From an uncultured Eubacteriales bacterium (GTDB taxonomy: Bacteria > Bacillota > Clostridia > Oscillospirales > Acutalibacteraceae): DNA of 37,678 bases. The stretch is taken from the NCBI GenBank assembly GCA_934702115.1, contig CAKUYF010000001.1, positions 1-37,678 of the forward strand, read 5' to 3'. The notes below the pieces were generated by a model. It ran no database searches. It was not told the DNA's origin and was given only the letters and a program-made list of their open reading frames with translations. Made by a program: the position numbers and the translations under genes. Of this stretch, positions 20,065 to 22,195 are shown in pieces (the stretch's first letter is position 1; every line of letters starts with the position of its first letter).

Positions 20065-20103
20065 TTTTCATTTTTTTCACTACATATATATATATATAAT
20101 CTC
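20065..20103. other. AT-rich DNA unwinding element (DUE) of oriC
   Basis: A T/A-rich stretch including a 15-nt (AT)n run at 20084-20098, immediately next to the TAG trios. Confidence 0.6.
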
Positions 20104-20118
20104 TAGTAGTAGTAGTAG
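20104..20118 (+). repeat. DnaA-trio element: five perfect tandem 5'-TAG-3' repeats
   Basis: TAGTAGTAGTAGTAG is followed by the GC cluster GGGC (20119-20122) and then the first box at 20123. This order, orientation and spacing match the DnaA-trio/GC-cluster/DnaA-box module defined in B. subtilis oriC. Confidence 0.7.
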
Positions 20119-20122
20119 GGGC

Positions 20123-20297
20123 TGTTGAAATGTTGAAAGTTGCTTGAAAGACGCATGTTCTCTGGGCTGAGGGGCAATAATTTTATGTTGAAAGTCTGTG
20201 GAGAAAATGTTGAAAATGTTGAAAGATTTTGCGATTTCGGGGGTTTTCCACATTTATGTTGAAAACTCATTGTTGAAAGTTGAAAACTTGTTGAAAA
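20123..20297 (+). repeat. oriC box array: eight perfect TGTTGAAA repeats plus variants and two near-consensus DnaA boxes
   Basis: Perfect TGTTGAAA copies start at 20123, 20131, 20186, 20208, 20217, 20257, 20271 and 20289, all in the same orientation. Variants are TGCTTGAAA at 20141 and AGTTGAAAA at 20278. Near-consensus DnaA boxes are TGTGGAGAA (20197-20205) and TTTTCCACA (20244-20252, inverted). Confidence 0.75.
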
Positions 20298-20321
20298 CTT
20301 TTTTTCCATAAAAGTAAAATT

Positions 20322-21635
20322 TTACCTGTCCCTAATGTTCTTTATTATGTCTTCAACCATGGCTTTTATTTTGGGATTTTTAGATAAATTTTTCTCTACT
20401 TGTTGTAGAGCATATACAATAGTTGAGTGATCTCTCCCTCCAAATTCGTCCCCAATGGCAACAAGTGGAAGCTGAGTTATTTCTCTGACGATGTACATAG
20501 AAATTTGTCGAGCATTAGAAACTGCAGCGGATCTTTTAGATGATCTTATATCTTCCGGAGTAACATTGAATGTTCTTGATACTTCATCTATTATTTTCTC
20601 CACTGTTATAGGAGGTGGTTGATCATTATTGAGTATATCGGAGATAGCCATTTGTGCGGTTTGAATTCCCATAGGTTCTCCGCCCAACAAATTATGAGCT
20701 TTCATTTTTTTGACTGCTCCTTCTAGTTGTCTGATATTATTTTTAAGTTTTTTTGCTATGTACTCACATATATCATTAGGAATTTTTATACCCAATAATT
20801 CTGCTTTTCTTTTAACGATTGCTATTCTTGTTTCGAAATCAGGTGGCTGTATATCGGCTATGAGTCCCCATTCAAAGCGGGTTCTAAGTCTATCCTCAAG
20901 GGTTTGAATTTCCTTAGGGGGTCTGTCCGAAGTAAGCACTATTTGTTTTTTTGCTTCGTAAAGAGAATTAAATGTGTGGAAAAACTCTTCTTGTGTAGAG
21001 TCTTTACCTGCAATAAACTGAATATCATCTACGAGTAATATATCTGCCTCACGATATTTTTGATGAAATTCTTCTGTAGTATTTTTTCTGATGGATTCTA
21101 TAAGCTCATTGGTGAAATCGTCTCCCTTAATGTACAGGCAAATTTTTTGAGGGTTATTTTTTTTAACTTCATTACATATAGCGTAAAGTAAATGTGTTTT
21201 TCCGAGTCCAGAATTGCCGTAAATGAATAGGGGATTATATGCTCCCGCAGGATTTGCGGCTACTGCTAGTGCTGCGGCATGAGCGAATTTATTTGAGGAT
21301 CCAACGATGTAAGTTGAAAAGGTAAATTCATATTCTGCACTTAAATTATTGTTGTTTTTGTTATCTATTTCGCTTGGAATAACAAAGCATATATTTATTC
21401 CGCTGTCTAAACCAACTCCGAATACTTCACTAAATGCGTCTTTTAACAAAGAACTATAGCATTTAGTTAGAGTTTGACGATAAAACTCATTAGGAACCAG
21501 TAATAGAGCTTTTTTTTCATCGAAGTTAAGGTTTAAAGGTTCTATTTTACTGATCCATGTTTTATAAGCAACTCCTGTGATTTTTTCCCTACAAAAGTCG
21601 CAAATCAGATCCCATGCTTCATTAAAAGAATTCAT
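20322..21635 (-). CDS. dnaA: chromosomal replication initiator protein DnaA
   Basis: A 437-aa protein with Walker A GNSGLGKTHLL, Walker B LLVDDIQF and domain IV GGRDHSTIVYA. The Shine-Dalgarno is GGAGG. Confidence 0.97.
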   Translation of the reverse strand: MNSFNEAWDLICDFCREKITGVAYKTWISKIEPLNLNFDEKKALLLVPNEFYRQTLTKCYSSLLKDAFSEVFGVGLDSGINICFVIPSEIDNKNNNNLSAEYEFTFSTYIVGSSNKFAHAAALAVAANPAGAYNPLFIYGNSGLGKTHLLYAICNEVKKNNPQKICLYIKGDDFTNELIESIRKNTTEEFHQKYREADILLVDDIQFIAGKDSTQEEFFHTFNSLYEAKKQIVLTSDRPPKEIQTLEDRLRTRFEWGLIADIQPPDFETRIAIVKRKAELLGIKIPNDICEYIAKKLKNNIRQLEGAVKKMKAHNLLGGEPMGIQTAQMAISDILNNDQPPPITVEKIIDEVSRTFNVTPEDIRSSKRSAAVSNARQISMYIVREITQLPLVAIGDEFGGRDHSTIVYALQQVEKNLSKNPKIKAMVEDIIKNIRDR

Positions 21636-21850
21636 AAAAAGAAAACCTCCGGGTTTTTGATAAAAGTAGTATTGTAAGAATTAATTTCAATTAAGTTACC
21701 TAAAAAAATTACTCAAGTTTGAATTTTTATTTTTAAGATTTAATTGAATTATTTTGAATTTATTTAAATATGAACAACAATAATTATACTCTGATTTAAG
21801 CTTTTTTTCAACAAATCGGCGTAAAATCCTACTGTCTTTATAAAATTTAG

Positions 21851-21879
21851 TTGACATAAACAGTTTGATATTTTATACT
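21851..21879 (+). promoter_or_regulatory. sigma-A promoter of rpmH-rnpA
   Basis: TTGACA at 21851-21856, a 17-nt spacer, and TATACT at 21874-21879. Confidence 0.5.
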
Positions 21880-22060
21880 TAATTATGAGGGTAAATGATG
21901 ATTAAAATTTATCGTTTAAGATTGTGGAATTTGAACTTTGAGATTATAATATTTAAAGACAAATTACATAATCAGGTTTTCGCTGGAGGCATGGTGGCTA
22001 AGTGCTAATGTTTGCAGTAAGTTTGAAAAATAAAAATATTCCAATCCAGGAGGGTTAGAA

Positions 22061-22195
22061 ATGCTAAGAACATATCAACCGAAGAAACTTCATAGAAAAA
22101 AAGAACATGGTTTTCGTAAAAGAATGTCTACTCGTAGCGGAATTAAGGTTTTAGCTCGTAGAAGAGCAAAGGGCAGAAAAAGACTCACTCACTAA
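22061..22195 (+). CDS. rpmH: 50S ribosomal protein L34
   Basis: Not in the track because it is 44 aa. Manual translation gives [44 protein letters not shown]. The Shine-Dalgarno is AGGAGGG, and the gene is divergent from dnaA and upstream of rnpA. Confidence 0.95.

Follow-up and report, generated by a model that had tools for sequence, protein, structure and literature searches.

Introduction

Studies of the Bacillus subtilis chromosomal origin have defined at incC, in the dnaA-dnaN spacer, a basal unwinding system (BUS) in which tandem DnaA boxes lead toward a GC cluster, 3'-GAT-5' trios and an AT-rich tract upstream of dnaN (PMC8287927, PMC7561715). In work on E. coli and B. subtilis, the C at position 6 of the DnaA box is treated as invariant (TTATNCACA/TTWTNCACA). 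Reviews list only 9-mers with C-A-C at positions 6-8 (PMC4285127), and origin finders use TTATCCACA by default (PMC10225481). Species-specific boxes have been described in H. pylori (TCATTCACA), cyanobacteria (TTTTCCACA), Actinobacteria (TTGTCCACA) and C. crescentus (TGATCCACA) (PMC4285127, PMC5043019, PMC10225481). In Thermoanaerobacter tengcongensis, a member of the Clostridia, the consensus is 5'-TTATCNACA-3', with a variable position 6; the cognate DnaA bound an oligonucleotide carrying TGTTGATAA and TGTGGATAA and, in EMSA, a TTATCAACA box beside a TTATCCACA box (PMC1888806). One TTATCAACA box has been predicted on the linear chromosome of Cyanothece (PMC4674748). Our literature searches found no paper in which TTTTCAACA is named as a DnaA box, and in the search for a DnaA box spelled TTTCAACA or TGTTGAAA only primers were matched.

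Here we describe a repeat array in a stretch of 37,678 bp from an uncultured Eubacteriales bacterium (GCA_934702115.1, contig CAKUYF010000001.1), referred to below as the window. The array is very probably the DnaA-box cluster of the chromosomal origin, namely the dnaA-dnaN part of oriC, of a gut member of the Oscillospirales with a small genome, in which TTTTCAACA would be the DnaA box of the lineage. Compared with the canonical 9-mer, this one has T at position 3, and its position 6 is A where the canonical box has C. As with the species-specific boxes, a lineage-wide respelling of one or two positions goes together with changes in the contact residues of DnaA domain IV; unlike the experimentally studied 9-mers listed above, all with C-A-C at positions 6-8, the window repeats alter position 6. 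T. tengcongensis also has a variable position 6, but its typical box is TTATCCACA and its origin lies upstream of dnaA, whereas here 9-10 of 12 boxes have A at position 6 (A6), with T at position 3, and A6 can be the only box type in sister species.

Results

Repeats in the dnaA-dnaN spacer

The array fills the dnaA-dnaN spacer in the gene order dnaA-[array]-dnaN-recF-gyrB, with rpmH-rnpA-yidC-mnmE divergent on the other side, and the GC skew switches sign at about 18-20 kb. The dnaA gene (20322-21635, minus strand) encodes 437 aa that score 493 bits with TIGR00362 (cut-off 344) and could be aligned to 1J1V, 8BTG and 3PVP. The dnaN gene occupies 18928-20043 on the same strand. Its open reading frame opens at 20064, where there is no ribosome-binding site; the TIGR00663 alignment begins at residue 8, tblastn alignments to relatives begin at residues 3-11, and the codon for Met8 (ATG, 20041-20043) is preceded by AAGGA. 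The gene probably starts at 20043, not at 20064, and the origin spacer thereby grows to 278 bp.

The original prediction had reported eight identical, same-orientation repeats, and a pattern search of the window returned eight exact copies of TGTTGAAA, on the plus strand at 20123, 20131, 20186, 20208, 20217, 20257, 20271 and 20289. Reading of the sequence likewise confirmed the two close variants (AGTTGAAAA at 20278-20286 and GCTTGAAAG at 20142-20150), the two near-consensus boxes (TGTGGAGAA at 20197-20205 and the inverted TTTTCCACA at 20244-20252) and a further copy of TTTTCAACA at 21805-21813. As 9-mers, the eight copies split into three TTTTCAACA, four CTTTCAACA and one ATTTCAACA. The whole window contains 13 copies of TGTTGAAA, 8 of them inside the array, against 3.7 +/- 1.9 in dinucleotide shuffles, and 13 was reached in 0 of 100 shuffles. 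The original prediction would have been refuted by an 8-mer that is simply frequent genome-wide, and the assembly (1.12 Mb, 204 contigs) was scanned for it. There are 124 copies on both strands of 1,124,910 bp where base composition predicts 86, and the array is the sole place in the genome with at least three copies per 300 bp. From the genome-wide counts, the Poisson expectation is 0.019 copies per 175 bp, and eight copies give p ~5e-19 per segment of that length. The 8-mer is thus more than a common word of this genome, and eight copies in the array are well outside what chance would give. The feature is genuine, strongly non-random and, as described below, conserved.

The claim that the repeat has two differences from the consensus stands against the strict 9-mer, but TTTTCAACA is only one mismatch away from the relaxed consensus TTWTNCACA (PMC7561715). 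Against that relaxed form, the three TTTTCAACA copies have one mismatch, the five CTTTCAACA and ATTTCAACA copies two, TTTTCCACA none and TTCTCCACA one. All eight exact repeats, and the variant box b, have A at position 6, in the place of the C by which a DnaA box is usually recognised.

Anatomy of the putative origin

Nine boxes form a distal cluster (20186-20297, minus strand), read from the sequence, whose register is kept in 22 same-genus spacers. Read on the minus strand, they are box a (20289-20297, TTTTCAACA), box b (20278-20286, TTTTCAACT), box c (20271-20279, CTTTCAACA), box d (20257-20265, TTTTCAACA), box f (20217-20225, CTTTCAACA), box g (20208-20216, TTTTCAACA), box h (20197-20205, TTCTCCACA) and box i (20186-20194, CTTTCAACA); box e is inverted (20244-20252, TTTTCCACA on the plus strand). 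A spacer of 46 bp (20140-20185), conserved in length and poorly in sequence, separates this cluster from two proximal tandem boxes on the minus strand (20123-20139), j (20131-20139, CTTTCAACA) and k (20123-20131, ATTTCAACA), which correspond in position to DnaA-boxes 6 and 7 of B. subtilis. In 19 of 22 genus spacers, the distal cluster and the proximal boxes stand 44-47 bp apart, with unconserved sequence in between, and this constant length suggests a geometric constraint such as looping or bending. Start-to-start spacing of the boxes is irregular (8, 55, 11, 11, 9, 27, 13, 14, 7 and 11 bp).

Next to the tandem boxes lies a GC cluster, GGGC on the plus strand (20119-20122), or GCCCC in the sense of dnaA if the G of the last trio is included; it reads [GT]CCCC across the genus. 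It is followed by five perfect DnaA-trios, 5'-TAG-3' (= 3'-GAT-5') on the plus strand (20104-20118; trio definition as in PMC8287927), and by an AT-rich tract (20058-20103, with (AT)n at 20084-20098), which is the probable unwinding element, trio-adjacent as in the BUS (PMC8287927, PMC7561715), and directly precedes the ribosome-binding site of dnaN. In the sense of dnaA, the spacer ends ...CTTTCAACA TTTCAACA GCCCC TAC TAC TAC TAC TAG AG ATTATATATATATATAT, and TACTACTA[CTA]TACTA is conserved in the trio region both within the genus and across Firmicutes.

As in B. subtilis incC, the tandem boxes share one orientation, and more boxes lie further upstream. The upstream tandem box is 12 bp from the first trio, where the published peak is 10-13 bp (PMC8287927). 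A BUS is recognised by three or more trios (3'-NAN-5', consensus 3'-GAT-5') no further than 16 bp from a DnaA box, together with a GC-rich spacer and AT-rich DNA alongside (PMC8287927), and the locus has all of these features. In contrast to the B. subtilis BUS, the window boxes are [C/A]TTTCAACA, an A6 spelling, and the five trios are without exception perfect TAG. The tandem boxes CTTTCAACA and ATTTCAACA are each three mismatches from TTATCCACA, and the published finder rule, which admits at most two (PMC8287927), leaves them out; with a lineage-specific motif, which the program allows, they would be accepted. The window also differs from B. subtilis oriC in having few boxes on the rpmH-dnaA side, where 430 bp contain one C6-type and six loose A6-type 9-mers and genus-wide A6 enrichment is only modest (about 1.8x). 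A6-type 9-mers are common in AT-rich DNA (a background of 6 per kb), so that loose counts give too high a number of boxes.

An Rfam search of the array region returned no family. Two open reading frames of 68 and 40 aa overlap the array, and were ruled out as coding by indels among relatives.

Upstream of dnaA, the TGTTGAAAA box (21813-21805, minus strand) overlaps the -35 hexamer of the probable dnaA promoter, TTGAAA-17-TATAAT (21783-21813, minus strand, 11/12 matches). This promoter is tied at 11/12 with TTGACA-17-TATACT on the rpmH side, and the two are the best promoter-like sites in 19950-22100. The arrangement TGTTGAAAA[CT] followed by the -10 hexamer is kept in about 20 of 26 relatives, and about 6 have lost the TG prefix while retaining TTGAA. 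The position of TGTTGAAAA over the -35 would fit DnaA autorepression; given that TTGAAA is a good -35 and that TG can be lost, the conservation of this copy may be partly or wholly that of a promoter.

Conservation within the genus

The genus comprises at least 30 species in our genome search; their genomes are about 1 Mb in size, and their GC content is roughly 30-39%. The comparison of origin repeats in related genomes, suggested as a check, was performed on 22 members, whose dnaA-dnaN spacers share about eleven box positions and gave 199 aligned box instances. The boxes are conserved in register in all 22, with the consensus T-T-T-T-C-A-A-C-A. Position 6 is A in 171 instances (86%), C in 27 (14%) and T in 1, and the best-kept positions are T4 (94%), A7 (92%) and C8 (91%). 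Box columns carry 1.50 bits of information against 0.81 elsewhere in the 22 spacers. Within this alignment, constraint falls on the textbook-box positions, with A in the place of C6.

At single orthologous positions, TTTCAACA interchanges with TTTCCACA, TTATCCACA, TTGTCCACA and TTTAAACA. The inverted box e is TTTTCCACA in four species, TTATCCACA in three and TTGTCCACA in two, and TTATTAACA, TTTTTAACA or CTTTCAACA elsewhere; box i is CTTTCAACA in four and TTGTCCACA in another four. The trio-proximal box is AAATTAACA in ten members, TTTTCCACA in three and [A/T]TTTCAACA in four, and the tandem boxes next to the trios are A6 in 18 of 23 genus members. A C6-type box was defined as one with C6 retained and at most one mismatch to TTWTNCACA. 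A6 boxes occur at 31.6 per kb in the spacers and 6.0 per kb genome-wide, and enrichment over the genome background is 5.2-fold for A6 and 3.5-fold for C6. The spacers of most genus members retain 1-4 C6 boxes. Five species (L014, L008, L013, L005 and L034) have none, with 7-11 A6 boxes instead, so that, as far as these genomes tell, A6 boxes suffice for an origin in this genus.

Box g derives from an insertion of roughly 10 bp that is common only to L001, L002 and L010, where it is spelled TTTTCAACA, TTCTCAACA or TTATAAACA; the number of boxes in the array is thus still changing in evolution.

The DnaA protein

The base-specific contacts of E. coli DnaA, R399, P423, D433, H434, T435 and H439, have been termed conserved in Firmicutes (PMC2533591; PMC7561715). 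Alignment to 1J1V and 8BTG places R, V, D, H, S and Y at these positions in the window DnaA, with three of six contacts altered (P423V, T435S and H439Y). The GGRDHST motif of its domain IV had been taken as canonical; the canonical motif is GGRDHTT, and with S at 435 the window motif is not canonical. The H439Y change is common to the window DnaA and that of M. tuberculosis, and a non-proline residue at 423 is common with H. pylori. Most Oscillospirales-type relatives sampled have R-x-D-H-S-Y, including high-GC ones with mainly CCACA boxes.

Co-variation of contact residues with box type was analysed on a FastTree phylogeny of 76 DnaAs. On this tree, at least 13 changes of state were counted for A6 dominance and 4 for the canonical residue set; with only 2-4 independent pairs available, a sign test has no power. 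A6-dominant origins occur in 4 of the 18 DnaAs with canonical P423, T435 and H439. With so few independent contrasts, and with canonical DnaAs at A6 origins, a residue-driven shift in specificity is not demonstrated.

Other lineages

The module of box, GC cluster and trios occurs across Firmicutes, with either the A6 or the C6 spelling beside the trios. C6 spellings are found in a Peptostreptococcaceae genome (L066, TTTTCCACA-ATATCCACA-GCCCC), Clostridium tyrobutyricum (L055, TTATCTACA-TATCCACA) and Alkalibacillus (L059, TTATCCACA-AATTCACA). A6 spellings at the trios include TTTTTAACA-AATCAACA (L056), TTTCAACA-GCCCC (L063) and TATCAACA (L103), and also occur in L037, L027 and L046; the trio-proximal box contains TCAACA in L056, L063, L103, L037 and L027. 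An order-wide scan with the pattern TNMACANNCCCTAYTAYTA, which is too strict for use at this scale, matched 24 of 401 genomes, 13 with A6 and 11 with C6.

In Faecalibacterium, the trio-side box is TTTTCAACA in one MAG (L043) and TTTTCCACA in F. prausnitzii APC923/61-1 (L045) and in L047, while the three DnaAs have the identical six contact residues REDHSY. This TTTTCAACA/TTTTCCACA pair shows A6 and C6 exchanged in nature, within a genus that can be cultured.

Several other Clostridia MAGs (L053, L072, L050, L051, L049, L054 and L058) have strongly diverged DnaA recognition helices, with D433N or H, H434Y and R399Q (for example, the motif NKNYSTVIY), and their origins contain TTTT[C/A/T]AACA boxes almost exclusively. 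In L053 and L072, the contact residues are Q-E-N-Y-S-Y, and the boxes are almost exclusively A6. Lineages of this type would be better candidates for a real change in DnaA specificity than the genus of the window.

Discussion

Our results indicate that the repeats lie clustered by dnaA at the skew switch, are in register among relatives and interchange with consensus boxes. The proposal that they are DnaA sites, contained in two of the three readings offered in the original prediction, is borne out by their positional equivalence to canonical boxes in relatives and other Firmicutes, and by the layout of boxes, GC cluster, trios and unwinding element. The in-register interchange with canonical boxes, together with the species that lack C6, argues that the repeats are DnaA boxes. 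By its sequence, the origin is an ordinary Bacillus-type oriC with a lineage-wide A6 spelling, genus-wide and used by other Clostridia, and not a new kind of element. Domain IV of DnaA would bind the eleven boxes; the tandem boxes abutting the GC cluster (20123-20139) would then nucleate a filament of ATP-DnaA along the five TAG trios (20104-20118), and this filament would melt the adjoining AT-rich stretch immediately before dnaN, by the same route as the BUS of B. subtilis. Autorepression would probably come from the box that covers the -35 hexamer of the dnaA promoter (21805-21813).

How DnaA reads these boxes can be viewed in different ways. D433 and L438 read position 7 of the box (PMC8235120), and G4, the partner of C6, is DMS-hyper-reactive and unprotected in E. 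coli and M. tuberculosis complexes (PMC5043019); both observations are compatible with a less direct reading of position 6 by DnaA. In our reading, Firmicute DnaAs would generally tolerate A6, and AT-rich Oscillospirales would have drifted, or been selected, almost wholly to A6. It is also conceivable, though we consider it improbable, that in a DnaA with P423 replaced, T435S and H439Y the optimum has moved to TTTTCAACA, with A:T preferred at position 6 and possibly weak competition from Spo0A~P at sporulation. If this shift were true, it would constitute a second recognition code for the core of the 9-mer, under-called by origin finders tuned to TTATCCACA.

A different possibility, to which we give a rather low probability, is that the A6 repeats are low-affinity, ATP-DnaA-dependent auxiliary sites filled cooperatively from C6 anchors (TTTTCCACA at 20244-20252 and TTCTCCACA at 20197-20205), the preference of DnaA remaining TTWTCCACA. 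Like the I, tau and C sites that lie between the R boxes of E. coli oriC, the repeats are non-consensus, lie in one orientation and could need cooperative ATP-DnaA. The two C6 boxes inside the window array, the 1-4 found in most genus members and the unchanged D433 and H434 agree with such a role, as do the high-GC relatives with RxDHSY (L035, L040 and L044), which use mainly CCACA boxes; A6 dominance tends to accompany low GC, as if mutation pressure eroded tolerant sites. However, very AT-rich Firmicutes with canonical DnaA (L055 and L066, GC 0.24-0.25) retain CCACA boxes, and AT pressure by itself is therefore not enough to eliminate them. The five species with 7-11 A6 boxes and no C6-type spacer box appear to make the high-affinity anchors dispensable and argue against A6 boxes as mere auxiliaries, and the tandem boxes that would seed the BUS are themselves A6 in the 18 of 23 members noted above. 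The irregular spacing is also unlike the regular, in-phase arrays with 2-bp spacing of the E. coli low-affinity sites. A role of the repeats as weak or dual-use Spo0A sites, by which Spo0A~P bound at the origin would keep DnaA off as sporulation begins, in the manner of B. subtilis oriC, seems very unlikely to us. In B. subtilis oriC, 0A boxes overlap DnaA boxes (PMC4285127; PMC3485338), and TGTTGAA differs from the 0A box TGTCGAA by a single base. Although a genome of 1.1 Mb might be expected to lack the gene, a bona fide spo0A adjoins spoIVB here and encodes 270 aa with REC and Spo0A_C (155 bits) and the recognition helix SRVERAIRHAIEVAW. We take this helix to be identical to that of B. subtilis. 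The gene was found in 30 of 31 genus genomes, so that its presence or absence does not discriminate, and spoIIGA in 29 of 31. Yet 24 distinct genus origins (6,081 bp) contain 0 TGTCGAA and 3 TGNCGAA, compared with 91 TGTTGAA and 22 TGTGGA[AT]. [quoted passage not shown] Moreover, the orthologous variants TGTTTAA, TGTTAAT and TGTGGAT keep the DnaA-box positions and lose CGAA, and A6 boxes stand at BUS positions in many other lineages, taken regardless of Spo0A gene content. Weak secondary occupancy of the repeats by Spo0A~P may occur, but the array itself is unexplained by Spo0A. Least probable of all, and hardly to be expected, is that the repeats are iterons of another origin-binding protein, or a -35-like TTGAAA array loading RNA polymerase for origin activation. 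TTGAAA does match TTGACA at 5/6 and two weak promoter-like matches lie inside the array on the plus strand, but the region has 9 promoter-like matches against 8.8 in shuffles, the conserved positions reach beyond the hexamer and mirror the DnaA box, relatives have canonical DnaA boxes at the same sites, and no Rfam family or conserved open reading frame covers the array.

With the repeats read as DnaA boxes, the finding is a useful correction to the rule of the invariant C and to origin finders. Prediction of origins and DnaA regulons in gut Clostridia rests on the E. coli box; since a whole genus and scattered Clostridia, including Faecalibacterium, have A6 unwinding boxes, motif-based tools would miss or mis-score such origins. 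Natural A6/C6 swaps offer a simple system for studying how domain IV reads the base pair at position 6.

The genome of about 1.1 Mb keeps spoIVB-spo0A (G000:C20:5139-8450, L111) as well as spoIIGA. Three more open reading frames have weaker Spo0A_C matches (43, 41 and 25 bits; 155, 388 and 80 aa; G000:C48:1082-1315, C11:1359-1673 and C86:441-644), and are possible paralogues. Upstream of spoIIGA, the 300-bp segments from 25 genus genomes contain only one TGNCGAA between them and no TGTTGAA, and are uninformative as a Spo0A control; 24 of the 25 have no TGNCGAA 0A box there. In the three such sequences that were viewed (L115, L119 and L128, from the set L115-L141), [A/T/G]TGTCAAG recurs, followed after about 40 bp by TTTGACATAATA, and this pair, about 60-110 bp upstream of spoIIGA, could be a local Spo0A or sigma-A arrangement.
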